From positions 1 to 33,589 of the forward strand of contig JAUCBJ010001553.1 in NCBI GenBank assembly GCA_032718475.1: a DNA stretch of 33,589 nt, read 5' to 3'. How positions within the stretch are numbered: the stretch's first letter is position 1; the number at the start of each line of letters is the position of its first letter. Source of the stretch: Nemertoderma westbladi (Eukaryota > Animalia > Xenacoelomorpha). Positions 1-28,397 of this stretch are shown piece by piece. Position numbers and translations under genes: made by a program. The notes beneath the pieces are model-generated. The model was not told the origin of the DNA. It saw only the letters and a program-made list of their open reading frames with translations, and did no database searches.

Positions 1-570
1 TGTCTTTCTCGATTTTGACCCCGATTTTGTCTTTCCCTATTATGTCCTCTGTGTGCATGGTATGTGTCCGAATTTGTGTTTACCATTGTGTACTTGATAT
101 TGTGAACATCTGTTGAGTACAGTGACTGGTAAGTGGTTACTTGTTCCTAGCTTTCGCACTTTCGCACTTTCCTAGCTTTCAGTATTGTTTGCGGAACTTA
201 CTTCCCCTCAATACTGCCGGCGAGGCGGGTGAAAACGTGTCAATATTCCATGTTGGGTAGCGCAAGCCCACATGGGACAAGACCGTCGGTTAGGCCCAAG
301 GGCGACCTTGGTGCTCGATCGCTATCGACTGGGCCACCCGCTGGTTGACTCTCTGAGTTGGCTCAATGTACAGTCAGGCCACAGTAAGTTGACAGTAGCC
401 GCCCATCTGGCTACACGTTCGACGAGCTGTGCCGTTGTGATCGGGGGACCGATAACAGAACCCGGGAAGCATAGGGCCACCCTCCAGCCCGGTCTGATAA
501 TAACATCAGTCACATTGGCCCCAGGGGTGGTGGAAAGGTGTCCGCCTCGTTGGTGCGCCTCGGGGAGGAG
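1..570. other. Unidentified repeat fragment homologous to 18175-18700, directly abutting BEL/Pao pol
   Basis: Collinear match to 18175-18700 (e.g. CTTCCCCTCAATACTGCCGGCGAGGCGGGTGAAAACGTGTCAATATTCCATGTTGGGTAGCGCAAGCCCAC in both). The plus strand is G/T-rich and no protein family was recognised. Right boundary approximate. Confidence 0.8.
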
Positions 571-574
571 CCCA

Positions 575-3235
575 GAAGGACACAAGCGCTGCTACCGACA
601 GGACATTTTGAAGTTGGAATGTTGTGGCGTCGACAACCTCCTAAGTTGGAGAACAACTACAACTTGGCTCTGAAAAGATTGAACGGAGTAAGGGCTCGGT
701 TGTTAAAGAATCCAGACGTTAGGGAGAAGTATTGCGCCCAGATAAACAACTATTTCGCCAAGGGATTTGCTGGGAAGGTAGAGGACCCCGACTTAGTGAC
801 GGACCAGACTTATTACCCCCCACACCACTATGTGACTCACCCTGACAATCCAGACAAAGTCTGAGTAGTCAACGACTGCGCAGCAGTCTATAGAGGTATG
901 TCCCTGAACTCAGAGTTGATGGATGGTCCCAACTTAAATAACTACTTAATAGGGATACTGTTACGCTTTAGACAGCTGCGATTCGCGTTTACTTGCGACA
1001 TCGAGGCAATGTTTCACCAGGTAAGAGCCTGCAAGGCGGACCAGGGTAGTCTCCGATTTCTCTGGTATTAGAATGAAGACCTATCCGGCCCAGTGGTTAC
1101 ATACCAGATGTATGTCAGGATATTCGGTGCCCGCGATAGTCCCAACAGCACGCTGTTTGTTCTAAAGAAAACGGAAATGGCCCAGATATGTAAGTATCCA
1201 GTAGATGTTATTGAGTCCATCCTGAGAAACTTCTATATGGACGACGGATTGGTGTCCAAGGACACAGCGGAACAAGCCATAGAAGTGGCTCACGGCCTAC
1301 AGGAGTGCATGGCTACAGGAGGTTTCCCTCTGACCAAGTTCACCACCAACTCGGAGGCCCTATTAGAGTCGTTCCCGGTGAAAGATCGCGGGAGCGGAGA
1401 CATTGAATTGGGGGTAGAACCCATCCCCATGGCGCGAGTACTGGGACTAGCTTGGAATCCGAACATGGATAAGTTCCAGGTGAGAGTTTGGTTTGAGCCC
1501 AGTAGCCCGGACAAAGTTTTGACTAAGAGAATCTGCTTATCCACAATGAGTAGACTATTTGACCCGATGAACTTTATTAGCCCAATAATATTACAGGCAT
1601 GAGTATGTATGAGGAAAATTTGGTTGTCCGACCTAGAGTGGGACGAGCCAATATGCAAAGCAGTGGAGAGAGTGGGAAGCCGAGTTACATCTATTGAAAA
1701 ATATAGATATACCCCGCTCCTACTTTCCGAATCAGCTGGTATTTCCAGCTGATTTAGAACTGCATTTGTTCAGTGACGCAAGTGACACTGGCTTTGGTAT
1801 GGTAGCCTACCTTCGCCGAGAGGTAAGTCAGGATAAGTTTGAGACAGCCTTTGTGACTTCTAGATCAAAGACAATGCCGGTCAAATACATGACTGTCCCT
1901 CGTGCAGAGTTGCAGGCGGCATTAGTCTCAGTCGAGGTAAGTAAGCAGATAATAGAGGAGTTAGGCATGACATTGACCTTATTTTATTGGACAGACGCAT
2001 CCTTAGTGTTAGTGTATATTGCAGCTGACAATATTGCACTAAAGACATTTGTGGCCAACAGACACGCTCAGATCGTCGACTTCTCGACGAAGGAACAGTG
2101 GAGACATTGTCCGGGAGTGTTAAACCCGGCCGACATAACTTCGAGAGGTGCTATGCCGGCGGAATTCTGTCAGGAGGAGTCCCAGGAGTTTTGGTTGCAT
2201 GGACATGGTTTTCTAACGAGGACACAGGAACACTGGCCAGAGCGACTGAAGATAGTAACTAATCCGATGCCGATAGATGCAGAAGTCAAAGTGGAGAAAG
2301 TTTCCAAGTCTAAGTCGAAAGCCAAACTCAAGTCATTGGAGCGGCCTGATGAGTCATTGGAGAGGCCTGAAAAGTCATTGGTGCGGCCTGAAGAGTCATT
2401 GGAGCGGCCTGAAGAGTCATTGGAGCGGCCCGGAGACCTGTCAGACCAAGAGACTTACGTGACTACTAGGTCTGGAAGGGGAAGTTATGACATAAAACCA
2501 CCCTTACAGACTACACAAGGGTCACAATTGGTAAGTGACGGATAGAAAATGACCGACAAGATGGAGCCTTTGGTTTCCAAACCTGCGGGTTTGGATTCGA
2601 AACTTCCATTAGCTAGCGGGCAACCGTCGCTGGCATTAGAGCCATGTAGTATTTATGACAAATTACTAAATTCGTCTGCCTCTTGGCTAACAATTTGTAA
2701 AAGAACTGCGTGGTTAAGCCGATACGTTTCGTACCTTTGTTTAAAACATTCGGAACATTTAGGAGAACAAATGAGCACTAATATTGAGCGAATTCAGAAA
2801 TTGAAACAACCTCTGACAGAGGATGAGATTGATCAAGCGGAATTAAAGCATTTGCAGCATTATCAAATGTGTGCCTTCCCGAAAGAATTCTATCTGTTAT
2901 CGGCTCAACGACCAGTTCTCTATAAACCCCTTAGAAAATGGAGTCCATTAATCCATAAGGGTTTGATTTGTCATAGATCGAGAATCCAGACTGTCGACAT
3001 AAACTCACAGTTTAGGTTCCCAGTGATAATCCCTAGTCACCCAATAGAATTACAAAGAGCGATTCTATGGGATATACATAAGAGGTTGCATCACGCGGGA
3101 AAGTTATACTGTTTGTCGGCAGCGAGACAGCGATTCATTCTATTGCAGCCAAGCAGGGCAGTAGGTACTATGTACGACGCCTGTCTGGTTTGCAAGAGGG
3201 TGAACGCCAGAGTATTGGAACAGGAGATGGCTTAA
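575..3235 (+). pseudogene. pol: BEL/Pao LTR retrotransposon pol remnant: RT, Pao RNase H (peptidase A17-type region) and integrase zinc-binding domain; integrase core missing
   Basis: Motifs YYPPHHYVTHPDNPDKV, DIEAMFHQV, FGARDSP, RNFYMDD, RVLGLAWN, TKRICLS..FDP, LHLFSDAS, PRAELQAA, FYWTDA, FVANR, WRHCPGVLNPADITSRG and H..LHHAG...CLVC. Several stops and a frameshift near 1660-1690. The HPxKPDKVRVV-D / DIEAMFHQV style resembles the Sinbad/Suzu branch (recalled, not searched). Confidence 0.95.
2331..2435 (+). repeat. 5 x 21-bp in-frame tandem repeat (SLERPEE-type heptads) between RNase H and integrase
   Basis: AGTCATTGGAGCGGCCTGAAG-like units start at 2331, 2352, 2373, 2394 and 2415. Confidence 0.95.
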
Positions 3236-3523: not shown

Positions 3524-4319
3524 ATGGAGAAGGAAATGAGAGCGCAACCGAGGAGAGGGTTCACCGCCAGAGAGGAGGCGGAACTACCGTTCGCCCAACC
3601 CGGGTGTAAGGATTCGAATGTTTACTACCACGGGAGATCGGTGATGGAGTTGAACGGGAAGTATAAGCCCACGTATGAGAAGGAGTTGAGGAGGGAACGG
3701 ATGCGAGCGTTGGGACACCGCATGGAGGTTCTACGGAAAGAATAACGCACTCGTTATCCCTACGACTTTGCCCTTGATGTATGTGATATTAGCGCAGACC
3801 CCGATGAGGAAATCGCTCGTCTATACCACATTAAACATGTATTTACGATATGACGAACCGCTACCTGCAGTCCGGGATCAATTCGACGGAATGCCCCTTT
3901 ACCGGAGGACTCGAGGCGAGGATCAGGAGACGCCAAAGGTTTTCATTATATACAAGTTGTTCTACATATGTGGCGAATGCATGAATAAGCAAGACGTAGC
4001 GATTCCCGATCGACTGAATGAGCAGAATCCTGAACCGATATTAACGCGATGTCAAGCTCACCAGTTTCTTAGATACAACGAGGGAGGTTACCCGATGAGC
4101 AACCCGATGATCAGTATCGACTTTAGCGGAAAGCGACCTCCGAGACCCATTATGCCGACTGTTACGACTTTAGATCCGTATACGGAGATTAAACCCTGTT
4201 CGACACCCGCTTTGATAGAGACGGCGGCGGCCATTTCGCTATACCGAGCCTATAAGGACATAGAGGCGCGGCGCGAAGCGGCACGGGACTCGAGTACCAC
4301 CTATATCCTTATTTATTAA
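3524..4319 (+). pseudogene. Orphan ORF region downstream of the BEL pol remnant (ORFs 3524-3745 and 3768-4319, probably one disrupted gene), function unknown
   Basis: ATG at 3524 and a coding-like, CpG-rich island between AT-rich DNA. Contains CGEC...CQAH. No family recognised. Confidence 0.5.
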
Positions 4320-4979: not shown

Positions 4980-5540
4980 TATGGTAATTTTCACTCGAAA
5001 CCTCGATCATTAAATCTGCCGTAGTCGATAGAGTAGGGGTAGGTAGCGGTCCCATAGTTAAATAATGTTTAGTTAAGCCGTTGCTATGGCGGAACACCCC
5101 GTTGCTATGGTATTTTGACTCGAAACCTCGTCCATTAAATCCGCTGTAGTCGATATAGTAGGAGCAGGTAGCGGTCCCATAGTCTACTAATGTTTATTTT
5201 TGCCGTTGCTATGGCGGAACACTCTGTTCCTATGGTAATTTGACTCGAAACCTCGTCCATTAAATCCGCCGTACTCGATATTAGGAGTTGAAATTGGTCC
5301 CATAGTCTAAACATTTTTATTTAAGCCGTTGCTATGGCGGAACACCCTGTTGCTATGGTAATTTTGACTCGAAACCACGTCCATTAAATCCACTGTAGTC
5401 GATATAGTAGGGGTAGGTAGAGGTCCCATAGTCTAATAATGTTTATTTTAGCCGTTGCTATGGCCGAACACCCTGTTGCTATGGTAATTTTGACTCGAAA
5501 CCTCCTCCATTAAATCCGCTGTAGTCGATATAGTAGGGGT
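4980..5540. repeat. Tandem array, ~125-bp unit, ~4.5 copies
   Basis: CTATGGTAATTTTGACTCGAAACCTCG...CATTAAATC...GTAGTCGATA...GGTCCCATAGT...GCCGTTGCTATGGCGGAACAC recurs near 4980, 5105, 5230, 5353 and 5479. Confidence 0.92.
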
Positions 5541-5553
5541 ATGTACTATGTAG

Positions 5554-6960
5554 TAGGGCGGTGTGTTTTTTACTTTTTTTCGATTTCATTGTTCTACCGG
5601 TGCACAAAAGTTGCCAAATGGTAAAGAAATAAGGCAAAAAAAATTTCTTTAAATTTCGTCTATGTCTTCACGGATCCCAAGAGGGTTGAAATTTTGTGCC
5701 ATCGCGATGCACCATAATGAAATTTATAACAATATAACACATTGATGAAAGATCAATGACTCAAAAAAGAACTTCCTGCATGCATCAAATGTCATCCAAT
5801 GGGTCCAAACTTAGTTAGATACCAAAATTTTAATTTTTGGATCAAGGGAAGTAGTGCCACAGGCACATGACCAGAACCTACTCTTTGGCGCAAGTGATGA
5901 TTATTCTCAATTTTGGTGATGGACAACTTTTAGTTCTCCTACGGCATTAATATTATGCTCATTAGAACCGCAATGACCGATTTAGTGGGGGTAGACACCA
6001 TCAAAATAAGCATAGAGCGAATAGTTCTTGAGATATTACAGAAAATGTTAAGTACGGCACAAGTCAACATTACCGCCTTGATGATTTATAGACAAATACA
6101 CAAAAACGTTACTTCTAATTATCTTAAGGCATCAAAAATATACACATCACTCCAACAAATTGATTTAGTGTATACAGACACCTTCAAAATTAAAGAGTAG
6201 TGATTAATTCACTATAGTTTTTATACAAAATGTGTGGAATGGTTCAATTCAATATCAAGTATTAATTGGTGGGCATAGTCTTGACATTTTGTAAAATAAC
6301 TCAAGAACTAATTACTCTACTCTTATTTTGAAGGTGTCTTCACCCACTATATCGATCATTTCTGTGATGTGTATATTCTTGATTCCTTGAGATAATTCAA
6401 AATATCATTTTTAGTGTAATTGTCCATATCACATCAAGGCGATAATGTAGACTTGTGCCGGACTTCACATTTTCTGCCATATCTCAAGAACTATTCGCTC
6501 TATGTTTGTTTTGCAGGTGTCTACTCCCACTAAATCGGCCATTGCGGTTCTATTGTGCATAATATGAATGCAGTAGGAGAACTCAAAGTTGGCCATCGCG
6601 TAAATTTAGAATAATCATCACTTGCGCCAAATGGTAGGTTCTGGCAATGTGCCTGTGGCACTAGTTCCCTTGATCCAAAAATAAAAATTTTGGTATCTAA
6701 CTAAGATTGGACCCATTTGATGACATTTTATGCATGCAGGAAGATCTTTTTTGAGTCATTGATCTTTCATCAATGTGTTATATTGTTATAAATTTCATTA
6801 TGGTGCATCGCGATGGCACAAAATTTCAACCCTCTTGGGATCCGTGAAGATATAGACGAAATTTAAAGAAATTTTTTTGCCTTATTTTTTTACCATTTGG
6901 CAACTTTTGTGCACCGGTAGAACAATGAAATCGAAAAAAAGTAAAAAACGCACCGCCCTA
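5554..6960. mobile_element. Non-autonomous foldback DNA transposon (hAT-like MITE), 1407 bp, whole element palindromic
   Basis: Ends are TAGGGCGGTG...CACCGCCCTA and the arms are inverted all the way to a centre near 6255. The 8-mer CTATGTAG occurs at 5546-5553 and again at 6965-6972 after an extra CTAT. TAGGG termini with an 8-bp TSD are typical of hAT. Confidence 0.85.
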
Positions 6961-7695
6961 CTATCTATGTAGTGATATGTAACAAGAGATTAAAATAAAG
7001 CCAGTCATTGTTTATATAAAAATCTTTTATTTTTCGAGGTATTTCAATTAAAACAATTCTCTCGTTAATTAGTAATTAATTTATTAACCGATTTTAGCGA
7101 AAAAATTTATCCAATACATCAGATACGGGTCCTCTACATGGTGCCAAAAAAACAGAATCGCCCTAACTAATATAGAAAAAAAAATATTATCCACCTCGTC
7201 CCTAACCCGTATTCGAACTCTGGACCACCCCCGGTCGGGATTTTTTTTGACTCCCCTATACAATCGCGCCAATCGATTTTTAAAATCAATTTTTCGTCCC
7301 TTTATCTCGGTCCTGGGGCCGTATAAAATAATTCTTGAAAAGTGATTTAAATACGCTCTTTCCAACGGTACCATCTGTTTTCCCTGAATATGTTTATAGT
7401 TTTGGCTGTGCTCGATACAGCCAAAATCCTGGTAGCCTTAAGATTGGTACGATTTTAGTGTTACGTGCGCCGTGGCGCAATTTTCGTTATAAACCGGAGT
7501 TTACAGGCCTAAACGCCGGTAGAACAGAGTGGCGCGTTTCGACAAGCAACTCTTTGACTTTAATTTGACTTTTCTGTCGCGCTTTGACAAATTTGACTTT
7601 TTTGACTATTATTTGCAAATAACATGGGTCTTTGAGTCTTGTACTGTAAAAGAATAAAATTTAAAAAATTAAAATTATTAAAAAATTTTTACTTA

Positions 7696-8652
7696 CGATA
7701 TTTTCCAACACTCGATATTTTTCAACACTCGATATTTTTTACTCTCGATATATATCAACACTCTATATTTTTACTCTCGATAATTTTACTCTCGATAATT
7801 TTCAACACTCGATATTTTTATTCTCGATATTTTTCAACACTCGATATTTTTACTCTCGATATTTTTCAACATTCTATATTTTTCAACACTCGATATTTTT
7901 ACTCTCGATATTATTCAACACTCGATATTTTTACTCTCGAATTTTTTCAACACTCGATATTTTTACTCTCGATATTTTTACTCTCGATATTTTTCAACAC
8001 TCGATATTTTTACTCTCGATATTTTTCAACACTCGATATTTTTCAACACTCGATATTTTTACTCTCGATATTTTTGAACACTCGATATTTTTCAACACTC
8101 GATATTTTTACTCTCGATATTTTTACTCTCGAAATTTTTACTCTCGATATTTTTCAACACTCGATATTTTTATTCTCGATATTTTTCAACACTCGATATT
8201 TTTACTCTCGATATTTTTCAACATTCTATATTTTTCAACACTCGATATTTTTACTCTCGATATTATTCAACACTCGATATTTTTACTCTCGAATTTTTTC
8301 AACACTCGATATTTTTACTCTCGATATTTTTACTCTCGATATTTTTCAACACTCGATATTTTTACTCTCGATATTTTTCAACACTCGATATTTTTCAACA
8401 CTCGATATTTTTACTCTCGATATTTTTGAACACTCGATATTTTTCAACACTCGATATTTTTACTCTCGATATTTTTACTCTCGAAATTTTTACTCTCGAT
8501 ATTTTTCAACACTCGATATTTTTACTCTCGATATTTTTGAACACTCGATATTTTTCAACACTCGATATTTTTACTCTCGATATTTTTACTCTCGAAATTT
8601 TTACTCTCGATATTTTTCAACACTCGATATTTTTATTCTCGATATTTTTCAA
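7696..8652. repeat. Minisatellite of interspersed 17-bp (CAACACTCGATATTTTT) and 15-bp (ACTCTCGATATTTTT) units with higher-order structure
   Basis: Read directly from the sequence. Diagnostic variants recur at 352-bp and 111-bp spacing. Confidence 0.97.
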
Positions 8653-10216: not shown

Positions 10217-10626
10217 CTAACTTTATGGAATTTCATGGCATATATCTGACTATTAATAATTATTGTTTGCTTTTTGTGTTTTAGTGTAGTAAATGTTTGT
10301 TTTGGGGCTGATGTTTTAATTCAGATTAATTTTTTTGGTCAACAAGTTAATTATTTGGTGCAAAAAGTATGTGTATTGATGTTTGCTATTTTTTTGCCAG
10401 ATTTTTTTTTTGGACCGCTTTTATGTTATTTTGTCAATGAGTAAATTATTTGGTCTCGAAAGTATGTTTTTTGGGTAAACTTTAATTGGCTTTAATTGGT
10501 AGCCTAAAATAAATTATTTTTTTTATCCTGTAACCATGGAGAATTGTCTTCCTGCTGTCACAACCAGTCCAGTAGGCCTACAGTACGGGTGATATACTTT
10601 AAGTAGGCACCGGCAGTAGGCCCTAT

Positions 10627-11833
10627 TATAAAAGCTTTTGCGGACATAACAAGTCATTTTTCCCGCAATGCGCAGTGTAGAGGCTTTTCCGGACATAACA
10701 AGTCATTTTCCCGCAATGCGCAGAATACTCTAAAAAAGCCCTAAATTTATCCAACTACGTGACGGGAAGGAATCAGAGCCCAGATGACGACATCTATCAG
10801 CTGATTCTTTGTGGACGTGGAATCTCTTTGTTCGTCCAACCAATCAGAGCGATTTCCCCTTATGTCTGACAGAGGCCTATGGAAACTCGCGCAATGCATT
10901 ACGGTCTTTGTTTACTATTTTCTGAGCAGCACAACCGGCTTGGAATTTTCTGTACTTCTGTGTAGAAGTTTCAGACTTTGGCCTAGAATATCAGATGGCT
11001 TTGATTATAAGAACGTAAAACTATTTACTGAAACACCACTGAAACATTGCTGGATACACTGAATCACTAAACATCGGACCGCATGGAACATTGCTGCACA
11101 TGTCATCCTGCATCATACCTGGAACACTGCATAAGTAACACATACTGACTGTTCACCGCATTATTTTACTTCTGTTATTAATTGTTGTTATATTAATGGA
11201 TATTGCTGTTATATTTGGAGAATACCGATAAATAATCATAAAACGCCCAATCTTCTTAATTACTGAAGGTAAGAGGAACAGGTTTACCGGTAGCAATTGC
11301 GACTTACATTATAGTGGTTTTTGTGTGAATTAAATGCTATTTCATAATCCCTACATGTGTCAGTTGCGATCCTCCTTATATATGATCAAATTCAGTGATG
11401 GTCGGCAGATCAGTGCGAAGTAGTGTGAAGTAGTGTGAAGTCGTGTGAAGGTTAATAAAGCATCTCCTAAAGAATGCGCTTTTTACGAAACTCTGTGGCC
11501 ATCTAGTTGTGATTAGTATAAGTCATAACTCTGTTTTTATACTTAAAGCGCCACGTCCTAAAGGAACTGTTAATATTTCCCCGAAAGTAAATATATTGTC
11601 AGAGATTATATAGTAACGATCAATCGAATAATACAGTAGGTCTACACTGCAATCACTATCAAGGAATCCGAATCCAGTCTCCCAAAACCGTGGGTGATAG
11701 GTCGCGCATGGACTGGCTTCGGCTGATGTAACTTCAGTACACTAGGTAATTGATATTGGCTAAAGTCGATTTATAAACAAGAGGACAACTAAAATTGGCA
11801 GGTTAAACTGCTAAAGGTCTAAAAGCGCGAACA
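10627..11833 (+). repeat. 5' LTR (TATAAAAG...GAACA; terminal TG mutated to TA)
   Basis: Direct repeat of 26536-27742 at offset 15909, with about 23 substitutions and 2 single-base indels counted by eye. Starts with a 49-bp tandem duplication (10627-10723) and has 10-bp AGTGTGAAGT repeats at ~11412-11450. Confidence 0.96.
11454..11459 (+). promoter_or_regulatory. Candidate LTR polyadenylation signal AATAAA (equivalent site 27363-27368 in the 3' LTR)
   Basis: Canonical hexamer conserved in both LTRs. Function not demonstrated. Confidence 0.45.
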
Positions 11834-11845
11834 TTAATAGTTTTA
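11834..11845 (+). promoter_or_regulatory. Non-tRNA primer-binding-site candidate TTAATAGTTTTA, complementary to an LTR-internal 12-mer
   Basis: Directly follows the LTR end and has no TGG. Its reverse complement TAAAACTATTAA is exact at 26925-26936 and 11/12 at 11016-11027. Confidence 0.6.
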
Positions 11846-13431
11846 AAGTCTTGATTGCACAGTAGGCAATAAATATATTTGTCTAATGTTCTGGTAAGAA
11901 CAATAATAGATTTATAAGTTTCTTTATTGCGCCGTAGGCAATGAAGTCGAATGTACCGGTTGGACGGTAAACTGTAGGCCTAACTGCCTAATCACCCGAA
12001 CCGGTACAGCAGTATTATTCGATTGTGATAATTATATACCGGTAGGTCTTGATATTTAATCGGGGACTGCAGCCCTGGTTTTTTATTGGGATTTTACTAA
12101 TTTCTGTCAGTTTTATTTATCTGTAAGTGTAATATTGAGCAGAAGGCGTGTAAGCCTGCTCAGATTGTATAAATAATTTGTAGGCCGGATTGTTGTCTAA
12201 CTGTTGTTAGGTCTGAAGAGATTGCAGTGTGTGTAGAGTGTCTTTCCGATAAAGTGCTAGTTAGGAAGGTGGGGGCATCCAGTGCTGTAAGGTAAATCCC
12301 CCCCGAAAGAGTAAGTCGTACTACTCAGTTAGAACGCCTACTAACTAACCATTTCGGAGTCTGCATATACTGTAGTTTATTTAGGCTTGACAGTAGTCTG
12401 CCAGCATTTGGTCTGTGTTTTGTTTGTATAGTCTGCAAGGGTAGCGTAATATTTATTATTCAGAGTCTATGCGAGTATTCGCAACCTCCACCTCCCCAAG
12501 TTTATTCCTACAGTATATAATTGTGCTTGTTATACATACCGTTATAGTTAAATTAACCCCGGTACTACATCAGGGCTGCTTGGCGTAGGTAAAGACTGGT
12601 GATTTTGTGCTCCGGTCACTCCAGCAGATACCGTGGTTCTTTTGGCTGTTCAAGTATATTTAACTGCTGGTTATTTGTTGTATAAGTACTTGTACCTAAT
12701 TTAGGGTTTAGCGTACAGTGCTTTCCGAAAGTAATTTAGAGTGTAGGCAGTATATTTGTGTTGTAATGTGGTTAATAGGCACGTTAGCACTGGTTGGCTT
12801 CGATAATTAACCTCTAGGTAAGGACACTCCGGGTATATAACGAAGTACTTATAGAGCTAAGACTATAAGTCGTCAGACGGTGGTATTTTCTTATCTGGAC
12901 AACGCAACTTACTTACTACTGCTTTATTGTTTTCAAATACCGTAGTTTCCTGTCAGTTTGTAAGAACCAGAAATTCTAACTCCTTGTTAGGCTGGTTTGT
13001 AGATTTCTTGTAAAATTACCCTAACAAATTGTACGTGTAACTTGTTATTGTTTATTTAGAGATTGTGATCTCAACCCGTTGTAATTGTAAGTAATTTGTA
13101 GTGATAAGTAACTTAGTAAAGTAGAATTATCAGTAATAGTGTCCAACAAGTAGCACTCCACTGAGAGCGTTCAGCTTCTGTGTAGTGACTCCTTATTCAG
13201 AAATAATAACATTTATTTCAAATATTGTTAAACCCCTTGTACGGGTATATATATATTATAAATCAACTCAAACAGATTTATAAAATAGTAGGCCTGTTAT
13301 ACATCAATTAGGTCTTAATATCAGTTGGACTACTGCTTGATAACAGTAATAAGTAAAAGGGAAGTAACCCTAAAATTCTGAAATTCAGTTATTATAAAAT
13401 AATTGACATTATTATTTACGTATTATTTTGG

Positions 13432-13679
13432 CCGGTATTTACGGTAAGCTTATTTTATATATTTATATAAATTTAGGCTGAAATTATATACTGGTATTCT
13501 GTGACTAATTCTAGTCTATAATAATACTTATATATACTATAGGTGTATACCGGTATTTAATGTAGGCTTATTATATTTATTTATATAAATTTAGGCTGAA
13601 ATTATATACCGGTATTCTGTGACTAATCCTAGTATATAATAATACTTATATATATACTATAAGTGTATACCGGTATTTT
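13432..13679. repeat. AT-rich tandem duplication, ~118-120-bp unit, in the retrotransposon leader
   Basis: CCGGTATTT starts at 13432, 13550 and 13670 with matching intervening sequence. Confidence 0.92.
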
Positions 13680-13814
13680 AATATTATATATATATATCAC
13701 ATTACACTGAGTAACGGTATCGGTAATTAATTACTAGGCTTACAGTTGATACTGAATTAATAGACTTGCTTTAACTGTCGTTATAGTAGTAGGCATTCAA
13801 CTGTAAAATAAATC

Positions 13815-16800
13815 ATGGCTGACACAAAGCAAACCCTGTCAGATAGTCTCCTAGAAAGAACAGTCTGTGACTCAGATAAGAGTATAGAACATCTGAGAAC
13901 GAAGTCCAAGTCCCCTCCTACTGTAAGAAAGGTCATCCCTACAGTAGTAGTATCAGACCCTAGGCTAGTAAAGCACCATAGGTCTGTTATAGGCACTAGG
14001 GCCCAAGTTAAGCGGGACCAAGAAGCAGCTGTTAAGCAGCAGCAGCACCCGAGCCGAGAACTTATTTCTCAACGGCACGATAACTCTAGTAGTTCAGACA
14101 CTGAAGAGTTGACGCCCGAGATCGGAGCAAGGATGGCAGAAGCGGTTTATCCAGATCCACTTCTAATTCTTCCTGGAGCCGTACTCACCAGAGTATTGAT
14201 CGCGGTGGAGGAACATCAAGTCGATTTGGCGAGAAATAAGCGATCTACCAGGGACAGTTATGCGGGATACACGATGGAGGAACTGAGGTCTATTGTCGAG
14301 ACGCAATGGAACTTCCCCGGATCCGGACTCCCGTTTAACTTATCGGAAGCTGCCTGGGAGGACTTATACAGGATGGGAATCGTAAGGGAAACTCGAGATC
14401 CAGCTGTGTGGAAGAGGTCGGCAGCAGGATATGTCCAGGGATTCTTCAGCTCTTTGGAGCAATTAGAGGAACACCTGTTTCAACAACGTCAAGGACCTCA
14501 AGAGCAGGGAGAGCTGCTTTATCAAGTGCGAGAACGAATCTTAAAGTCTTAAAGTCCAGGGAACGACACAATGGAAAGTTCAGCTAACTGAGCGCATGAC
14601 CCATGGGGAATCAACAGACGCTACCTTTTCTCAGGTGGAAGGCGAAGCTACATCCGAGAAACCTCAGAAGAAGGATGCTATTGACATCTATCTGTCGGAC
14701 TATCAACGATTTATAGGTTACAAAGAGTAAAGGAGACGGCTAGCTGGACTTCACCCTAATAGTGAGGGAGCCAAATTTGTGTTGGACTCGTTAGATGCGG
14801 AAATATTAGCCACGGAGCAGGCTAAATTTGATGAAAGCATCCTCATCGCTATGGAACAGGAAGAACAAATAAAGAAACGATAAATAGAAGACCAAAAGTT
14901 GGCAGCAGCGGCAGAAGCTGAAAGAAAGGCGGCGGAAGCTGAAAGGTCAGTGGCAGCGGCAGAATTAGAAAGACAGGCGGCAGCGGCTGTGTCAGCAACA
15001 GAGGCTGAAAGAAAAGCTGCAATGGCAGAAGCAGAACGGAAGGCATCTGAAGCGACTACACAGCTAGAGCTGGAGAACCTTCAGGTGAAACAAGATTACT
15101 TAAATAAACAAAGAATAGCTACTCTGATGCAACTACTGAGTCGATCTACTCCCAGAAGACAGGGATTTACCTCCTCCGATGAGGGTGTTACGACTGATCC
15201 TGAAGGAACAGGTAATAAATCTCGTTCAAGTGGACGTAGAAGAACGCCACACCATCAGAAGTTACCTAATTTACCTCCTGTGGTGAGAAGGCAACTGGCT
15301 AATGTAGATTTAAGTAATCCTGAGCCCACAGACCAAATTATTAGAGTAGACAGACTCCCTACTATAGTAGATGAGCCCTAAATAATTAGGCCTGTCATTG
15401 AAGCCACTCCGGTTATAGAGACGCCTGTACTTCCAGAACCTAACTCTAAATTCCCTTTGCACAGTACTAAACTACCCGTGCCCAGTAGACAAGCTCCGGA
15501 ATCACTCCCAGTCCTGGACGCCGAGCAAGACATAAATGACTTGTCTCCCGTTGTCCCTACGTGTCTCCCCGCTACTATGTTGGCGGCTCCCGCTTCGGCG
15601 GTTGAGTGGGTAGACGAGGGACGGCGGGGGATGGATCGCCTGCTCGGGCAGCTGGAAGACCATAAACGAAGGTCTTCACAGCAGGTCCGCGAATTGGAAG
15701 GGACTGTTCAGCAGTTAAAGGGAACAGTGAGAGAGAGTAGGTTAGAGTTGCAAGAAGTGCAACAAAGTATCACTTTAGAGCGCGATAAATTAGTAAATAT
15801 ACAAATGGGTATACCACCACCCCCTGTAACAATGTGTCAACCCGTTAGGTCTGAAGTATTTCATGCGCAAGGTGAGGAATCTACACGCATCTATACTGCT
15901 AGTGAAGTAGAAACTCCTATAGTAAACCCTATTAAGGGTAATTAAAAACCTGTGGATAATGATATCCCATACAGATCTGATCATAATCCGAGAAATTTAT
16001 ATACCGATAACTCGATATTTAATAATACGATGGCTCAAGAAAGTTTTACACGTCAAATGGGTAGAACTGAAGCCCGTCAAGCGGTAAAGGTGGGAGAGGT
16101 CGTCAAGTTTAATGGAGATGAGATGAAATGGTTACCTTTTAATGAATATTATAAAGATAACATACAGAACTCTGTACTATCTAACGGAGAGAAACTTAGA
16201 TTCCTCATCGAATGCTTGGAAGGACCTCCCAAGTTAATGGCGTTAAAGTTTATTGGACATCCAGATGGATTACGACAGGTTTGGGATACACTAAATATCA
16301 GGTATGTTAATAGGACTAACATAGCTAGGTATTTGTATGCGAAATTAGTAGCGCCCCGAAAGTTTCTTAGCAGCAGGATTATCGAGTTTTCCGATGAGAT
16401 CCAGGAGATCTATAGACAGTTAGATTGGTTAGGTAAGTCTCAGGAATATCAGATTTCTATGGTTGTTGGAGCCGTAGCATCTACTTTGCCAAAGGGTGGA
16501 GTAGGTACTCGCTGGGACCAAAAGGTTCTCTATATGATGGACTGGCAACAAAGAGACCCTACTATGGCTGATCTCATGTCATTCTTAAATGGAGAAGTTA
16601 GATTACAGCTCCTAAAGCAGTCCAGAGAAAAGACACCGGAAAGTAAGGTGAGTGAAAAACCCGTTTCTAGGAGAAAGGTAACACCAGTGTGTTATGCGGA
16701 CGATGGCGAAAGCCAAACCTCATACGAGGAAAGCAGCGGTAAGGACACCGAAAGATCTTATTATGTCAATAAAATGAGGAAAGACGTAAGTAAATCTAAG

Positions 16801-17444
16801 TCTCGAACCAGTGACAGGAGAGAACAGGTAACAACTCCTCCTATGTCTCCTAAGAGAATTCATGGAAGAAAGCCCGAGGAAAGAACAAGTGTGCACAACA
16901 CAACACAGGAGAAAGTAAGTAACATCAAACCCAAATGAGCATTGTGCGATGGGCCACATCGCTTGAGTGGGTGTGATGAATTCTTGAAGAAATCCCTAAA
17001 GGATAGACGTGATGTCATGTGGGATAAGCAGTTGTGTTATAATTGCCTCAGATGAGGACACCAACGGCGGACCTGTTACTCAGATGCGAGGTGTGCTAGT
17101 GCGGCACGAAACATCACATCTTGCTGTACACAGAATTTGACAGAACCCGCACGAGTCAGGTAAGTGAGCCCGAACTACATGTCCAATTCAGTGATGTGAA
17201 CGACACTGACCACAGCTCTGAGATGGAAGGATTCTACATGGACGAATTCTCCAACTAAAACGAATCCTGTTATATGATAAACACCGCGGTGTATCGAGCA
17301 CTTACGTATGAGACTGAAACTGAAAATGAAGAGCCTCGACTGACTATTCTGGACCGACAACCATCTTGGAAAGCTCGAACTTCCAACGTCGGAATCCGGG
17401 AATTCCCCGTGGTGCAGCTGAGAGTCCACGGGCTAGGGAAGAGC
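13815..17444 (+). pseudogene. gag: BEL/Pao gag, copy 1 (long N-terminus, Ala/Glu coiled coil, DUF1759-like capsid region, three zinc knuckles), ending just before the protease
   Basis: ATG at 13815; KFNGDEMKW..F...EKLRFLIECLEG..DTLNIRY; (C>stop)ALCDGPHRLSGC, CYNCLRxGHQRRTC and a frameshifted third knuckle. Multiple stops and frameshifts. Confidence 0.92.
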
Positions 17445-18690
17445 TTGCCTAAAGAGGTGAGGTCTCTATAGGGGTGAGCTCAACAGGCGGCGGCGGACTC
17501 GTGAGGGTCTGGGGGCACGTTAAATCTTTTCTATAGTGCAAGGGAGTTACTGAAGGCCCTCGTGTCTTGCGAACCATGAATCAACATGGTGCCGTGGTAC
17601 CATCTAGTCGGCCTGTTGCCATACTGCTAGTCCTATACACAGCAGGGGTGGTGGCTTGGTGTGATCTGTGGTCTATGTGGTCTATATGGTAGGTCTATGT
17701 TTGGTATGTATGAGTTCACCAGACTCTTTGCTGTCTCCGATCGGTTGCCGAAACGTGTCTTTTCCCAGGGTAGCACTATTGGAATGGAGGTGTTGCATCG
17801 GAATGGGCAGGATTCTAATGATTCTGTTGGTACTACTATTGGAATGGAGGTAGCACCTGGAATATCTGCTGAAAGGAGGGGGTGGTGTTGTAGTGTGGTC
17901 CCAGTGAATGATACTCTGGAATCTGTGGTTTGTGTGTGGACGATCAGTGGCAGTTTGCTTGAGCTTTCTGTTGCTGTGGGTACGTGGTATACGTGAGTGT
18001 GTGTATGGCCACTGCGAGTGAGTGTGGGAAATCTTGCCGGTTGGTTCAGTCGCCGCTGGCTATTAGTAGGACCATATCTTTACTGCGCCCCAGCATACTT
18101 TGTGCACACAAAGTTATTTTGCCCTGACGGCAAAATAAGGTACTCTCGACTCTTTTATCAGTCGATACAATTTTGTCCCCTCTGATTTTGTCACCGATTT
18201 GTCTTTCCAGATTATGTCCTCTGTGTGTGCATGGTATGTGTCCGATTTTGTGTTTACCATTGTGTACTTGATTTCGTGAGCATCTGTTGAGTACACGTGT
18301 ACAGTGACTGGTAAGTGGTTACTTGTTCCTAGCTTTCGAGCTAGTCAGTATTGTTTGCGGAACCGACTTCCCCTCAATACTGCCGGCGAGGCGGGTGAAA
18401 ACGTGTCAATATTCCATGTTGGGTAGCGCAAGCCCACTTGGGTCAAGACCGTCGGTTTGGCTCAAGGGCGACCTTGATGCTCGATCGCTATCGACTGGTC
18501 CACCCACCGGTTGACTCTCTGAGTTGGCTCAATGTACAGTCAGGCCACAGTAAGTTGACAGTAGCCGACCATCTGGCTACACGTGCGACGAGCTGTGCCG
18601 GTGTGATCGGGGGATTGAAAATTGAACCCGGGAAGCATCAGGCTACCCTCTGGCCCAGTCTGATAAAACGGAGTCGGACTGGCCCCAAGG
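17445..18690 (-). other. 1.25-kb unidentified insert between the two gag copies, with a stop-free minus-strand frame at 18079-17633
   Basis: No BEL similarity. The distal ~520 bp match 1-530. Manual translation gives 148 sense codons with no ATG (RYGPTNSQRRLNQPARFPTLTR...PQITPSHHPCCV*). Confidence 0.6.
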
Positions 18691-21600
18691 TGTGTGGAAG
18701 AGGTCGGCAGCAGGATATGTCCAGGGATTCTTCAGCTCTTTGGAGCAATTAGAGGAACACCTGTTTCAACAACGTCAAGGACCTCAAGAGCAGGGAGAGA
18801 TGCTTTATCAAGTGCGAGAACGAATCTTAAAGTCTTAAAGTCCAGGGAATGACACAATGGAAAGTTCAGCTAACTGAGCGCATGACCCATGGGGAATCAA
18901 CAGACGCTACCTTTTCTCAGGTGGAAGGCAAAGCTACATCCGAGAAACCTCAGAAGAAGGATGCTATTGACATCTATCTGTCGGACTATCAACGATTTAT
19001 AGGTTACAAAGAGTAAAGGAGACGGCTAGCTGGACTTCACCCTAATAGTGAGGGAGCCAAATTTGTGTTGGACTCGTTAGATGCGGAAATATTAGCCACG
19101 GAGCAGGCTAAATTTGATGAAAGCATCCTCATCGCTATGGAACAGGAAGAACAAATAAAGAAACGATAAATAGAAGACCAAAAGTTGGCAGCAGCGGCAG
19201 AAGCTGAAAGAAAGGCGGCGGAAGCTGAAAGGTCAGTGGCAGCGGCAGAATTAGAAAGACAGGCGGCAGCGGCGGCGTCAGCAACAGAGGCTGAAAGAAA
19301 AGCTGCAATGGCAGAAGCAGAACGGAAGGCATCTGAAGCGACTATACAGCTAGAGCTGGAGAACCTTCAGGTGAAACAAGATTACTTAAATAAACAAAGA
19401 ATAGCTACTCTGATGCAACTACTGAGTCGATCTACTCCCAGAAGACAGGGATTTACCTCCTCCGATGAGGGTGTTACGACTGATCCTGAAGGAACAGGTA
19501 ATAAATCTCGTTCAAGTGGACGTAGAAGAACGCCACACCATCAGAAGTTACCTAATTTACCTCCTGTGGTGAGAAGGCAACTGGCTAATGTAGATTTAAG
19601 TAATCCTGAGCCCACAGACCAAATTATTAGAGTAGACAGACTCCCTACTATAGTAGATGAGCCCTAAATAATTAGGCCTGTCATTGAAGCCACTCCGGTT
19701 AAAGAGACCCCTGTACTTCCAGAACCTAACTCTAAATTCCCTTTGCACAGTACTAAACTACCCGTGCCCAGTAGACAAGCTCCGGAATCACTCCCAGTCC
19801 TGGACGCCGAGCAAGACATAAATGACTTGTCTCCCGTTGTCCCTACGTGTCTCCCCGCTACTATGTTGGCGGCTCCCGCTTCGGCGGTTGAGTGGGTAGA
19901 CGAGGGACGGCGGGGGATGGATCGCCTGCTCGGGCAGCTGGAAGACCATAAACGAAGGTCTTCACAGCAGGTCCGCGAATTGGAAGGGACTGTTCAGCAG
20001 TTAAAGGGAACAGTGAGAGAGAGTAGGTTAGAGTTGCAAGAAGTGCAACAAAGTATCACTTTAGAGCGCGATAAATTAGTAAATATACAAATGGGTATAC
20101 CACCACCCCCTGTAACAATGTGTCAACCCGTTAGGTCTGAAGTATTTCATGCGCAAGGTGAGGAATCTACACGCATCTATACTGCTAGTGAAGTAGAAAC
20201 TCCTATAGTAAACCCTATTAAGGGTAATTAAAAACCTGTGGATAATGATATCCCATACAGATCTGATCATAATCCGAGAAATTAATATACCGATAACTCG
20301 ATATTTAATAATACGATGGCTCAAGAAAGTTTTACACGTCAAATGGGTAGAACTGAAGCCCGTCAAGCGGTAAAGGTGGGAGAGGTCGTCAAGTTTAATG
20401 GAGATGAGATGAAATGGTTACCTTTTAATGAATATTATAAAGATAACATACAGAACTCTGTACTATCTAACGGAGAGAAACTTAGATTCCTCATCGAATG
20501 CTTGGAAGGACCTCCCAAGTTAATGGCGTTAAAGTTTATTGGACATCCAGATGGATTAAGACAGGTTTGGGATACACTAAATATCAGGTATGTTAATAGG
20601 ACTAACATAGCTAGGTATTTGTATGCGAAATTAGTAGCGCCCCGAAAGTTTCTTAGCAGCGGGATTATCGAGTTTTCCGATGAGATCCAGGAGATCTATA
20701 GACAGTTAGATTGGTTAGGTAAGTCTCAGGAATATCAGATTTCTATGGTTGTTGGAGCCGTAGCATCTACTTTGCCAAAGGGCGGAGTAGGTACTCGCTG
20801 GGACCAAAAGGTTCTCTATATGATGGACTGGCAACAAAGAGACCCTACTATGGCTGATCTCATGTCATTCTTAAATGGAGAAGTTAGATTACAGCTCCTA
20901 AAGCAGTCCAGAGAAAAGACACCGGAAAGTAAGGTGAGTGAAAAACCCGTTTCTAGGAGAAAGGTAACACCAGTGTGTTATGCGGACGATGGCGAAAGCC
21001 AAACCTCATACGAGGAAAGCAGCGGTAAGGACACCGAAAGATCTTATTATGTCAATAAAATGAGGAAAGACGTAAGTAAATCTAAGTCTCGAACCAGTGA
21101 CAGGAGAGAACAGGTAACAACTCCTCCTATGTCTCCTAAGAGAATTCATGGAAGAAAGCCCGAGGAAAGAACAAGTGTGCACAACACAACACAGGAGAAA
21201 GTAAGTAACATCAAACCCAAATGAGCATTGTGCGATGGGCCACATCGCTTGAGTGGGTGTGATGAATTCTTGAAGAAATCCCTAAAGGATAGACGTGATG
21301 TCATGTGGGATAAGCAGTTGTGTTATAATTGCCTCAGACGAGGACACCAACGGCGGACCTGTTACTCAGATGCGAGGTGTGCTAGTGCGGCACGAAACAT
21401 CACATCTTGCTGTACACAGAATTTGACAGAACCCGCACGAGTCAGGTAAGTGAGCCCGAACTACATGTCCAATTCAGTGATGTGAACGACACTGACCACA
21501 GCTCTGAGATGGAAGGATTCTACACGGACAAATTCTCCGATGAAAATGAATCCTGTTATATGATAAATACCGCTGTGTTTCGAGCACTTACGTACGAGAC

Positions 21601-23868
21601 TGAAACCGACCATGAAGATCCTCGACTGACTATTCCGGACCGACAACCATCTTGGAAAGCGCCAACTTCCTCCGTCGGAATCCGGGAATTTCCTGTGGTG
21701 CAGCTGAGAGTCCATGGGCTAGGGAAGAGCCTGATAGTAAACGCCCTCCTTGACTCCGGCAGCACAGGTACATTCATTGACAAAGAACTAGCCGAAGACA
21801 TCTTTGCTGGACAACCCAAGTTCCGAACTAAGTTGAACCTTTCCAGAATTATGCAGGTTTGGAAATCCACAGTAGCTACAGATTACTACGTGGGTGCATT
21901 GTCCACTCCCCAGGATGAACTAGGAGAACATACCGTAAGGTCGGTAAAAATGGTGGCTATAAAGAACTTTGCTACTAGCCAAGTGGAACCTTACAACTGG
22001 GATGAAGACCATTTTACCCAGCAACATAATATACCTAGATTCAATACTGACTATCCAGGGGTGCAGATATTAATCGGCCAAAATGCGCACGAAGCGCTTG
22101 AGACTTTAGAAAAACGGCCTGCTCGACCGCAACCATTACAAACTTACGCGGGAAGAACGAGAGTAGGTTGGTACTTCACTGGCCCTTCCCGTAGAACTCT
22201 AATGGAAAGACTACCTAGTGAGAGAATTCATCAGGTGAGTGAATGGGAAGAAAAAATCAGTGAGGGAGAAACCACAACTGAGGGAACTCCATACTCCTCA
22301 GACAACGACGATATTAACCAACTGTACAATGAGGAAAATACAATCGACCTCCTCACCAAAAATCAAACTTGGTTAAACTAAGTAAACTTGTGCCATCTTA
22401 TCGATCAACATGGCAGACAATTCACATATAATGACGAATTAAACGAAGTGATAGATCGATACAATAACAAAATTTGTGATGAACACGCCGTATGATTCTT
22501 CATTCAAGAAGCCGTAGAGCCTAATTCCTACGACAAAGCCTTGTCTGTCGAGGAAGAGAGAGCCAAGCAGATTCAGGAAATGACAACCCGTTATCTGAAG
22601 GACGAAGGTCGCTATGAGATTGGTCTTCCGTTCCAATGGCTAGAACCCAACTTTATAAATAACCAATCTTTAGCGGAAAAGAGAATCGCGCAACTACATC
22701 GGCGTCTTACGGCCAACATTCCAGCCAGGGTAATGTATAAAACCCAGCTGAAGCAATTTATTGATAAAGGATACGCGGAGCGAGTACCGGAAGAAACACC
22801 CGTAACAGAGATAACGTATTATCTAACACATCATTACGTTCCCAAGCCCGGTAAACCCAACGAAGTCTGGGTAGTGTTTGACGGCTCCGCCCTCTACATG
22901 GGTCAATCCCTGAACTCGGAACTATTGCCGGGACCCAACTTACTCCAATCCTTGTTGGGAATACTATTAAGATTGCGGCAATATTCTATCACATTCGCTT
23001 CGGACATAGAAGGCATGTTCTTACAAGTCAAGGCGCTGGATATGGATCGAGACAGCCTACGATTTCTGTGGTGGCCTGAAGGAGACCTCAACCGATCCAG
23101 GCTTTCGGGATCATCTCGAGCCCCTCGAACGCTTGTTCGGTAGTGCGTACAACTGCCGATGACAACCGAGACGCCTTCTCTAAAGTGGTTATTGACAACA
23201 TGGATGGACGACAATTTAAAGTCCCTCCCATCGGTGGAAGAAGCCATTGATGTTACCATGGGAACGGTAGAGTGCTTGCAACGTGGTGGATTTCGACTAA
23301 CCAAATTCACTAGGAACTCCCGTGAGTTTCTGCAATCGATCCCGGTAGAAGACTGAGGTGTTAAAGATCTGTACCTCATCAAGGACGATCTTCCGGAAAC
23401 CAAGACACTTGGTTTAAAATGGGACACGGAGAGAGATATCTTGTTTTTCCAGTTAAAACAACGAGATAATCCAGTTAGAACTAAACGGATTTGTCTAAGT
23501 ATCCTGAGCACTTATTTCGATCCATTGGGATTTATTAGCCCAGTTATATTGGTTGCTCGGAGCTTAGTGCATGATCCACTTAAGGGAGAACTACTAAAGA
23601 AGTGGATGAAATGGGAAGATTCTCTACCATCCATCGAGAACTTTATGATTTCCCGTTCATATTTTGGTCACGTTCTCCTCACATATTCCTATCAACTCCT
23701 TGTGTTTGGAGACGCCAGCGATAGAACTCGTCGGTAGAACTCGTCGTCATGCGACATAACTTTAAGAAACCTGGAATTGTATTCGAAACACAACAACTCA
23801 ATCGCCCAGTTGGTCACTTATGTTTACTGGAAAGAGACAGAGAGCTATCCGGAAACTATGGAAGGTAA
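18691..23868 (+). pseudogene. gag-pol: BEL/Pao gag (copy 2, 5'-truncated) plus pol remnant: aspartic protease, RT, start of RNase H, extreme integrase C-terminus
   Basis: 18691-21730 duplicates 14405-17444 at offset 4286. Motifs NALLDSGSTGTFI, ILIG, YYLTHHYVPKPGKP, SDIEGMFLQV, WMDD, TLGLKWD, TKRICLS..FDPLG and VFGDAS, then a jump to RPVGHLCLLE (~23803-23832). Confidence 0.94.
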
Positions 23869-24847: not shown

Positions 24848-25090
24848 GGGGGGGGGGGGGGGGGGGGGGGGGTAGCGCATTTTCTGACCAAAAAGTCGAA
24901 TTTTTTAAACATATCCTATCTGATGCAGAATTTCATGCTGATATGGAAACCGTTTTCCCATATGTTGCTTAGTTTTCGAGATATCTTGGATGGAAGATAC
25001 TGGCTCCGATACATCGCGATATCGGTAAACGAGATGAAGTTTGGGGTTTGCATTCTATTTCTGCAAATTTATGTGCTCATTGGTGCTAAT
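24848..25090. mobile_element. Possible fragment of a TTAA-targeting non-autonomous DNA element
   Basis: TTAA followed by a G run, plus motifs (CAGAATTTCATGCTGA, TTAGTTTTCGAGATATC) of a style common in invertebrate MITEs. No second terminus found. Confidence 0.3.
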
Positions 25091-26457
25091 TGGATGTCTC
25101 CACGAGAAAGAGCACCTCCCCATTCCCTGGTGAGACCTCAGACTTTTGATCCTAATAGTATGACGGATCCTCCTGAACTGTACTCATTGTTCAAAGATCT
25201 AGTGTTACCCGAACAATTAGTCGTTGACACTCCGGTTGTGGGCTCCCTAGATATTCGCCCATCTTACCTAGCCGGATTGGGACGCGGACACCTAATATCG
25301 CCATTCAACCCGTATAATCGTCCCGGTTTAACCCCGATACAACCCGTCACCAAGGTGGAGGAGAGCGTTGTACGAAACGCGTTAGACGTTATTCGACAAA
25401 AGATCGGAAAAGGAACCTACGATTGTTTAGATAAACGTAAATTGCATCAGCAAGTCCAAGCGGTAAAGGAATTGGCCTTACCCCAGTTCGACCGAGAAAT
25501 CCAGAACCTCGAAGAAGATATCGAACTCAGACTAACCTACTCTCTGCAAGAGTTTTTGGACGAATGCTTCCAACAACAAGCAGAGGAAAATCAGCTCGAG
25601 GAGAAGCACATCGAAATGGAGGAGTTAGAAGAAGCAGCTTTAACCCAGCCAGAAGCTCAAATCCTTATGACTGATCTCTATTCCAAAACCATCATCCATC
25701 CTTCGATGGTTCCCCATTTCGGAGACAAACTCTTCGCCACGGTACAACCCCAACCGGTTGTTATCAACCTAAAATCTAGAGATCTTATCGCTGACGCTCC
25801 TATGTTACAACGTCCGCCAATCGAGGCCGCTCGTGTCGACGGTATACTCGTTGAACCTCCGGACAATCGAGCGGATCTTGTCCGTCGTGTGGTACACGAG
25901 GTCAACCTACGCGCTAGACCTTTGCCGAACTCATTCTATGGGATCAATGACCACCCTTATTATGTCAATTTAACTCAATATTATATGGTGAAACCGGAAG
26001 ATCCTACGCACAGTTTAAAGTTTCTACCATTGATAAATCCTGCGGTGACTTGTTCATAAACTCGCATCCAGAGCTACAGGAAGTTTATAGACAACCATAT
26101 GAATATAGAGCCCGAGAACGCGAGTTGGAAAGAACCATTAAACCGAGGAAATTTCTCACTACTCACGGTCCGCCTACTGCTCTCGTGCAAACGACTCGTC
26201 AGGGACCAGTAAGAGCTGCCGTCCTGAAACGCTCTCTAAAGGTTGTTCGACCTCGTTCCATTGAGGTTGATATTGATCAACTGGGTACCTCGACTGGCGG
26301 ATACACCGACCACAATCCGAAACCTTCCGATGCAATTGTATTGCACCCCTCACCCAGGAGTTATAGCCCTCCTTGTAAAGTGGCTCGCCCCAAAGAGAAA
26401 AGGACTCTTACTAGCCTCAAAAAACTTTGTAAACGCCATTCACGTAGGAAGGACTAG
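24923..26457 (+). CDS. Extra ORF in the env position (24923-26059 plus frameshifted 26050-26457), unknown function; true start uncertain
   Basis: About 1.5 kb with no internal stop apart from one frameshift, ending 78 bp before the 3' LTR. Acidic/Gln coiled-coil-like centre, Pro-rich flanks and a basic C-terminus. No C-terminal transmembrane segment seen. Confidence 0.65.
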
Positions 26458-26526: not shown

Positions 26527-26535
26527 TGGGAGCGG
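26527..26535 (+). promoter_or_regulatory. Polypurine tract TGGGAGCGG
   Basis: Directly precedes the TGT of the 3' LTR. Short G-rich PPTs are typical of BEL/Pao. Confidence 0.8.
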
Positions 26536-27742: not shown

Positions 27743-28397
27743 CCTATGGTAATAGGCACCAGAAGAAGCCCCTTAACATTAGAGAGTCTATTGGTCTTCG
27801 GAACCGATAGGCCTACAACTTGCAACAATATACTGTAATAAGATATCTGCATTTCCTATGCGATAAAGGTAGTATGGGCCGATCAGCGATCGCTAATTCA
27901 TTCCCTCCCCCCCCCCCCCCCCATTCAGGGTGTTTTCCTGATTGGTAATCGTCGTACTGTACAATCCTCTACTACACTAGGCTTACTAAGTCTTCCTCTA
28001 TATTCATGGAATTTTAGTAGCGCTCCGCTAATCCCATCTGCTCAGTGCTCATATCAAAAAAACAGATATCTCATCCATTATATAGTAGTAGCAATTGGGC
28101 CTCCTACAGTAGTCGAAGAACATTCTCTTTAATGTTCACGAACATCATTCTCATGAAGTGATATAGAATTGCTCCGAAATTAGCTTACTCTTTAATACAT
28201 TTACTCGTGTGTTATACTCGCACTCGGTGTAATAATTTTGTGAAACTCTGAATTTATTTCCTAGATTAGATGCGTTGTTCTATTTGTTTTAATGAATAAT
28301 AGTCAATTGAGCACACATTAGGCCTAATCTAAACAGTACCGTGTAGTGCGGTACATTAAGCAGAAGAACGCAGTAACGTTTAGTACGGTTCTGATTA

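Follow-up and report, generated by a model that had tools for sequence, protein, structure and literature searches.

Self-priming of reverse transcription has been shown for the long terminal repeat (LTR) retrotransposon Tf1 and predicted for the Tf1/sushi group, for Tcn1 and for the plant Copia TAR lineage (PMC6317226, PMC4600332, PMC6934838, PMC3601003, PMC5445492, PMC5443660). In Tf1, the pairing involves the first 11 bases, and the RNase H cut falls between bases 11 and 12 (PMC7175516, PMC4600332). Tf1 and Tf2 of Schizosaccharomyces pombe, Tj1, Tf1/sushi and Tcn1 (Ty3/gypsy) have no tRNA site and carry an LTR segment of about 11 nt complementary to the primer-binding site (PBS), while self-priming of the TAR/Houba/Osr-1 elements is predicted where LTR and PBS are complementary over at least 10 bp, beginning 0-5 bp past the LTR (PMC6317226). 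The Belpaoviridae (Semotivirus) profile of the international virus taxonomy committee (ICTV) gives, instead, an 18-nt PBS for tRNA-Arg or tRNA-Gly, with a host tRNA as the primer (PMC8742986). Here we describe a BEL/Pao element in a 33,589-nt stretch of Nemertoderma westbladi DNA (contig JAUCBJ010001553.1; the whole stretch is called the window below) that lacks a tRNA site and probably starts reverse transcription from a primer encoded in its own LTR, i.e., from the 5' end of its RNA. The PBS of this element pairs with its LTR, 21 related families show such a pairing in other letters, and the likeness between family contigs ends at the 3' end of the candidate primer.

The element looks like a BEL/Pao member that lacks the tRNA PBS stated for the family, is Tf1-like in mechanism and stands outside the Tf1 group. 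It shares with the Belpaoviridae the LTRs, the polypurine tract, the order gag, protease, reverse transcriptase (RT) and RNase H, and the DUF1759 and Pao peptidase domains. It differs from the Tf1 group in belonging to the BEL/Pao superfamily, in its predicted 2-3 unpaired 5' bases, in an 810-nt loop and in being known from sequence alone; moreover, in 14 of the 21 BEL/Pao relatives the partner of the PBS exists only after predicted splicing. The TAR/Houba/Osr-1 elements are Copia elements of plants, and the available description of them contains no splice-built primer. No paper on self-priming in BEL/Pao was found in literature searches, which did not reach subscription papers or the entries of Repbase and GyDB, and these entries may describe such sites; a word search of the accessible text of five BEL/Pao or LTR surveys (PMC554778, PMC3118150, PMC6238403, PMC4131045, PMC8556966) returned no passage on the PBS or on priming.

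The primer-binding site and its partner in the LTR

The pairing sequences and the repeats that contain them are the following.

10627-11833, + strand: 5' LTR, 1207 bp, starting with TA (TG in the 3' copy) and ending with ACA
26536-27742, + strand: 3' LTR, 1207 bp, direct repeat of 10627-11833
11834-11845, + strand: non-tRNA PBS, spacer 0-3 nt
11016-11025, + strand: candidate self-primer, 10 perfect pairs in the 5' LTR, 3' end within 11024-11027
26925-26936, + strand: exact 12-nt complement of 11834-11845, in the 3' LTR
11898-11921, + strand: LTR end plus PBS once more, in a degenerate copy 64 nt downstream
10990-11025, + strand: block common to family contigs, with likeness stopping at the 3' end of the candidate primer

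A sequence-only reading of this DNA had reported that no TGG follows the 5' LTR and that the site past the LTR has an exact complement in the 3' LTR and a one-mismatch complement in the 5' LTR. Both observations are borne out: there is no TGG within 11 nt of the 5' LTR end, the reverse complement of 11834-11845 has a single exact occurrence in the window, at 26925-26936, and the 5' partner at 11016-11027 carries one mismatch and is perfect over the 10 nt of 11016-11025. This site forms the most stable duplex of the PBS with either LTR (-10.8 and -12.4 kcal/mol; runner-up -9.0), and the AAGA/TCTT extension described earlier is indeed part of that best duplex, across a 3x3 loop. The partner lies at LTR position 390 (95-361 in the relatives) and the PBS at an offset of 0-3 nt (0-6 in the relatives), and the element thus has a complement of at least 10 nt in its LTR to a site 0-5 nt past the LTR, as is expected for Tf1-like elements and under the rule used for TAR/Houba/Osr-1.

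The two LTR copies of the partner differ in how readily they arise by chance. In dinucleotide shuffles of the LTR, the 12-mer of the 3' LTR was matched in 2 of 4000 at offset 0 and in 12 of 4000 at offsets 0-6, and the 10-mer of the 5' LTR, the copy to be used, in 97 of 4000 at offsets 0-6. The chance of about 1 in 1000 estimated from the sequence therefore suits the 3' LTR copy, but for the 5' copy alone it is about 1 in 40. Among 209 control 32-mers from the leader, none reached 12 nt against the 3' LTR and three reached 10 nt against the 5' LTR.

The family in the host was followed in contigs from four runs (X1, X3, X4 and X5), which by their nature cannot show RNA starts or ends; a further run, X6, which may be of RNA, does not reach the site. 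Family depth across 11025/11026 falls from 27,626 to 3,719 in X1, from 20,256 to 4,077 in X3 and from 3,673 to 157 in X5 (5- to 23-fold); in the small run X4 the drop is not sharp, so that the fall is seen in three of the four runs. Since the same drop recurs with a longer stretch, it is not an edge effect. All four listed loose ends past 11025 begin with A, like the 3' LTR (20 of the 25 loose ends are shown), and for this reason the T at 11026 has probably arisen in the 5' LTR alone, and the family-wide partner is probably 11 nt long. A boundary of likeness at this place would be expected in a Tf1-like cycle, where the bases up to the cut would come from the 3' LTR together with U3 and the rest from strong-stop DNA, because inheritance of the primer with U3 would end at the cut. 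The stretch just past the primer, 11026-11135, is C/A-rich and strongly variable between family contigs.

Pairing, predicted splicing and a proposed common 5' boundary in related families

A metagenome scan for relatives kept 79 loci. Calls were made for 29 of them (22 at a junction and 7 contiguous), which make up 21 families, with L041 and L060 labelled from identical relatives; three truncated loci (L008, L037, L067) retain the exon-2 half only, and 47 loci, mostly contigs without LTR or PBS, received no call. LTR sequence is present without a call in L044, L045, L056, L061 and L074, and in L079 the first PBS base is changed. Matches in L048, L052, L074, L075 and L079 at places not established as LTR ends were not counted. 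Viral contigs held no relatives (eight matches of at most 22-26 nt were taken as chance), and neither did prokaryote genomes.

In all 21 families the site past the LTR pairs with the family's own LTR, contiguously in 7 and across a predicted LTR intron in 14, and none of the 13 related records whose LTR end is fixed by a direct repeat has a TGG. The covariation that the sequence-only reading had proposed to look for among relatives is found: the 21 families pair with different letters, and close families differ by compensatory changes (L063 and L038 in two substitutions, L016 and L037 in an indel of one base, L034 and L040 in four bases). The suggestion that a BEL/Pao lineage self-primes thus gains strong comparative support; cleavage, and duplex formation in the window copy, are putative. 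The sequence-only reading overlooked the predicted intron that splits the partner in 14 of the 21 relatives.

The contiguous complement in relatives is usually short and starts right after a polypyrimidine tract and AG, and it extends into the bases that precede an upstream GT. Joined across the predicted junctions, the matches are 11-15 nt long and exceed all 209 decoys in seven of nine families, at consensus-like splice sites; of the remaining two, L065 has 11 nt in the loose scan only and L057 has a contiguous 10 nt, above 209 of 209 decoys. The strict donor pattern was set after candidates had been seen by eye, with GTACGT added for L059 and the L065 donor picked by hand; with a loose donor scan, 0-5 of 209 decoys are equally good. 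A blind scan of 16 records with the whole LTR region, from which the L060 rows of n=18-20 (artefacts) and two 10-nt contiguous rows (L040/L042 and L063) were dropped, gave six further junction families and six contiguous ones. The six junction families have an ACA 0-6 nt before the match, although it was not requested (L072 has a second, equal match without ACA). For the six contiguous families ACA was required, and 4-14 of 300 shuffles each (1-5%) pass.

Several oddities were seen among these loci. The exon-2 half of L067 (111-125) begins 8 nt past the LTR end, farther than in any other family. ACTTAC, the reverse complement of a splice donor, is repeated near the LTR start in several intron-less families: L031, L034, L035, L038, L063 (first 45 nt of the LTR) and L056. 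In L041/L042, one contig reads as a single element's 6138-bp unit repeated head to tail, which may be an assembly effect.

When the window element is included, 22 families share a signature. The duplex is 11 nt long in 14 of them, 10 in 2, 12 in 2, 13 in 1 and 15 in 3, and the 3' end of the primer is AC or AT in 21. Two bases 5' of the duplex (-2) stands an A in 19 of 22 families, compared with 32% of 834 decoy inverted repeats, and CA is found there in 11 of 22, compared with 7% of the decoys; the families share ancestry, and the 19 of 22 must not be counted as 22 independent trials. Because the A is present in intron-bearing and intron-less families alike (13 of 14 and 6 of 8), it is not a splice signal, and to judge from the sequences it suggests an initiator or start of transcription, with a 5'-terminal primer as in Tf1. 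The start near LTR position 390 (11009-11016) proposed earlier for the window element receives indirect support from this A, the nearest As being 11012-11013; the start itself stays a prediction.

On the RT tree, intron-bearing and intron-less families are interleaved, with six changes of which at least four are forced, and intron state is not clustered (179 of 500 shuffles are as low); another tree, of 98 rows, was made by a quick method only. The interleaving indicates that the intron was lost or gained repeatedly. Tentatively, and with somewhat more doubt than belief, we propose that a broad marine BEL/Pao lineage uses a capped self-primer of about 13 nt, cut from the 5' end of its own RNA, that in most families is built by the spliceosome when it joins a first exon of 6-11 nt to the second, and that intron-less families like that of the window arose repeatedly.

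The proposed priming cycle and its alternatives

Two further features of the 5' LTR bear on how the window element may be expressed.

11006-11013, + strand: TATA-like TATAAGAA; by the clade pattern, the As at 11012-11013 would be the candidate start
11269-11363, + strand: possible LTR intron, downstream of the primer, with GTAAGA at 11269 as donor and six candidates for the uncertain acceptor; prediction only

We infer the start, the splicing, the cut and the priming from what is described for Tf1. Transcription would start at an A 2-3 nt before the duplex (11012-11013 in the window element), the first 13 or so nucleotides of the RNA would fold back onto the PBS, and RNase H would cut after them, as in Tf1. 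Minus-strand DNA would then copy U5-R from the cut end and jump to the 3' LTR, restoring the primer sequence; in the relatives the jump would also restore the intron, if the 3' copy stays unspliced. The primer of the window family would be ready-made, whereas 14 relatives would need splicing of the 6-11-nt first exon to build theirs. Copying of the primer by the plus strand, as follows from the general LTR cycle, would rewrite the PBS in each cycle and would keep primer and PBS in step.

The possible intron of the window element has no part in this scheme. The junctions predicted for the donor at 11269 do not match the PBS, and a splice-junction primer reaches 7 nt at best, with 124 of 209 decoys equally good, i.e., not above chance. 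An intron of 11269-11737 was considered as a fold helper and rejected: its removal (469 nt) raises the duplex probability to 0.8, a rise also brought about by 10 of 21 arbitrary deletions equally long.

In favour of a 5'-terminal primer, the duplex has a probability of at least 0.5 in 13 of 16 relatives with the RNA starting at -2 and in 7 of 16 with a start at -60, but shortening an RNA favours any helix that remains, and this comparison is weakened accordingly. A number of observations weigh against self-priming by such a primer, above all in the window copy. In the window element the 5' LTR duplex amounts to -6.5 kcal/mol and would close a loop of 810 nt (77-328 in the relatives), and it is not predicted in the fold (probability 0.005). 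The window element is the only family of the 22 whose primer does not end in AC or AT; its best register has C at -2, which makes it one of three families without the A, and the clade register, 11014-11024, has an A at 11012 but pairs at 9 of 11 positions only. The conserved block also contains TATAAGAA, directly upstream of the primer. Beyond the window copy, the PBS of the family was read in one variant, which diverges after 11842, and the RT sits on a long branch from an unresolved base, outside the main group of relatives, at 37-47% identity to them. The evidence is therefore stronger for the clade than for this copy, which is off-signature and has a long loop, a duplex that is not predicted, a TATA-like box and a long RT branch.

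It is conceivable, though unlikely, that the self-pairing is used with a primer that is internal or derived from the 3' LTR, perhaps from a second packaged RNA, and that transcription starts elsewhere, at about 11036 or about 10973. A start near 11036 would be implied by TATAAGAA, which we take to be TATA-like and which lies within the conserved block, but family likeness ends at 11025 and not at 11036, and the 22 families have no common TATA-like signal at -25 to -32. The upstream alternative draws on what are presumably initiator-, ETS- and YY1-like motifs near 10965-10999, with an initiator-like start at about 10973. An internal primer would also agree with the location of the perfect 12-mer in the 3' LTR and with how unusual first exons of 6-11 nt would be; A or CA at -2 in both family types and the 11-nt mode of duplex length fit a 5' boundary instead.

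Less probable still is that the clade self-primes while the window family is primed from another site or by another RNA, its AT-rich match being due to chance or a relic. The match in the 5' LTR has a p of about 0.02 with free offset, and the off-signature primer, the long loop, the weak fold and the long RT branch would all be natural for a relic, but p is 0.0005-0.003 for the 3' LTR copy, and no other site gives a better duplex in either LTR. The LTR position (390) and the offset (0-3) are near the values of the relatives, conservation stops at the 3' end of the site, and the window element has no junction alternative above chance. Finally, priming by a host RNA (tRNA fragment, half-tRNA or other small RNA), with the self-complementarity a structural switch or leftover, is very improbable in spite of the tRNA-Arg or tRNA-Gly priming stated for the family (PMC8742986) and the half-tRNA priming of Copia lineages (PMC6317226), given that PBS letters differ among the 22 families, each matching its own LTR, that the window has no tRNA gene and that 10600-13900 has no Rfam match.

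The window copy, its neighbours and the meaning of a probable tRNA-free priming

Apart from the LTRs and the priming signals, the element has the following parts.

10622-10626, + strand: target-site duplication CCTAT, 5 bp, left copy, repeated at 27743-27747
13812-16938, + strand: gag region with DUF1759, stop-interrupted
14402-21733, + strand: internal duplication of 3046 bp (copies 14402-17447 and 18688-21733), flanking an insert
21386-23719, + strand: protease, RT and start of RNase H, stop-interrupted
24848-26059, + strand: stop-free frame of 403 codons without Pfam match
26528-26535, + strand: polypurine tract GGGAGCGG, directly 5' of the 3' LTR

The two LTRs are identical at 1183 of 1206 aligned bases (98%; 23 mismatches, 2 gaps). 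Assignment to BEL/Pao (Belpaoviridae) follows from the type of Gag and Pol, from LTRs within 0.2-1.2 kb, the polypurine tract and the target-site duplication, from the DUF1759 match (E 6e-11), and from the RT homologues: 37 of 42 have PF05380 and/or PF03564 or named BEL-type domains listed, and those named come from Ciona, a barnacle, a ribbon worm, amphioxus and two insects. As these homologues are BEL/Pao, the RT is not that of a Ty3/gypsy chromovirus of the Tf1/sushi group. Two traits of the family are missing, the 18-nt tRNA-Arg/Gly PBS of the ICTV profile and an integrase after RNase H: tblastn matches to full-length homologues end at 23719, and no integrase was found beyond. In its place, 24848-26457 holds two long stop-free frames without Pfam match before the 3' LTR. 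We read the lack of integrase as a defect of this copy, which could have moved only with help in trans or could have decayed after insertion; its insertion is recent, the copy itself is defective, and the family to which it belongs has very many variant contigs in the host.

The insert between the duplicated blocks partly resembles another BEL element at window positions 11-539, the piece at 18184-18704, between the duplicated gag blocks, being 86% like it. Positions 1-3235 and 3690-4319 contain another BEL/Pao pol, also broken, with RT, RNase H and an integrase zinc finger; an unmatched frame of 209 codons comes after it. At 5551-6963 lies a long inverted-repeat element of about 1.4 kb, with arms 91-93% complementary, that resembles a non-autonomous DNA transposon, and tandem arrays with units of about 125 bp and 15-17 bp occupy 4980-5545 and 7683-8652. 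By eye, 28399-29390 and 30371-30925 resemble the endonuclease region of a non-LTR retrotransposon and the remnant of an integrase; neither has a Pfam match at E 0.01.

Among LTR superfamilies, BEL/Pao has received the least study, and descriptions of it speak of tRNA priming, yet a tRNA PBS is absent from the window element and from all 13 related records in which the LTR end is fixed. Annotation of LTR elements that relies on the PBS misses or mis-scores such elements. The predictions are base-exact, and cap analysis of gene expression (CAGE) and RNA-seq could examine them. If correct, self-priming in BEL/Pao would mean that tRNA-free priming had arisen independently once more, in an animal lineage that is abundant, and may place these elements out of reach of silencing by tRNA fragments. 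The splice-built primer, if true, would couple the onset of reverse transcription to splicing by the host, and the PBS would then be a genomic record of the exon junction and of the transcription start site.
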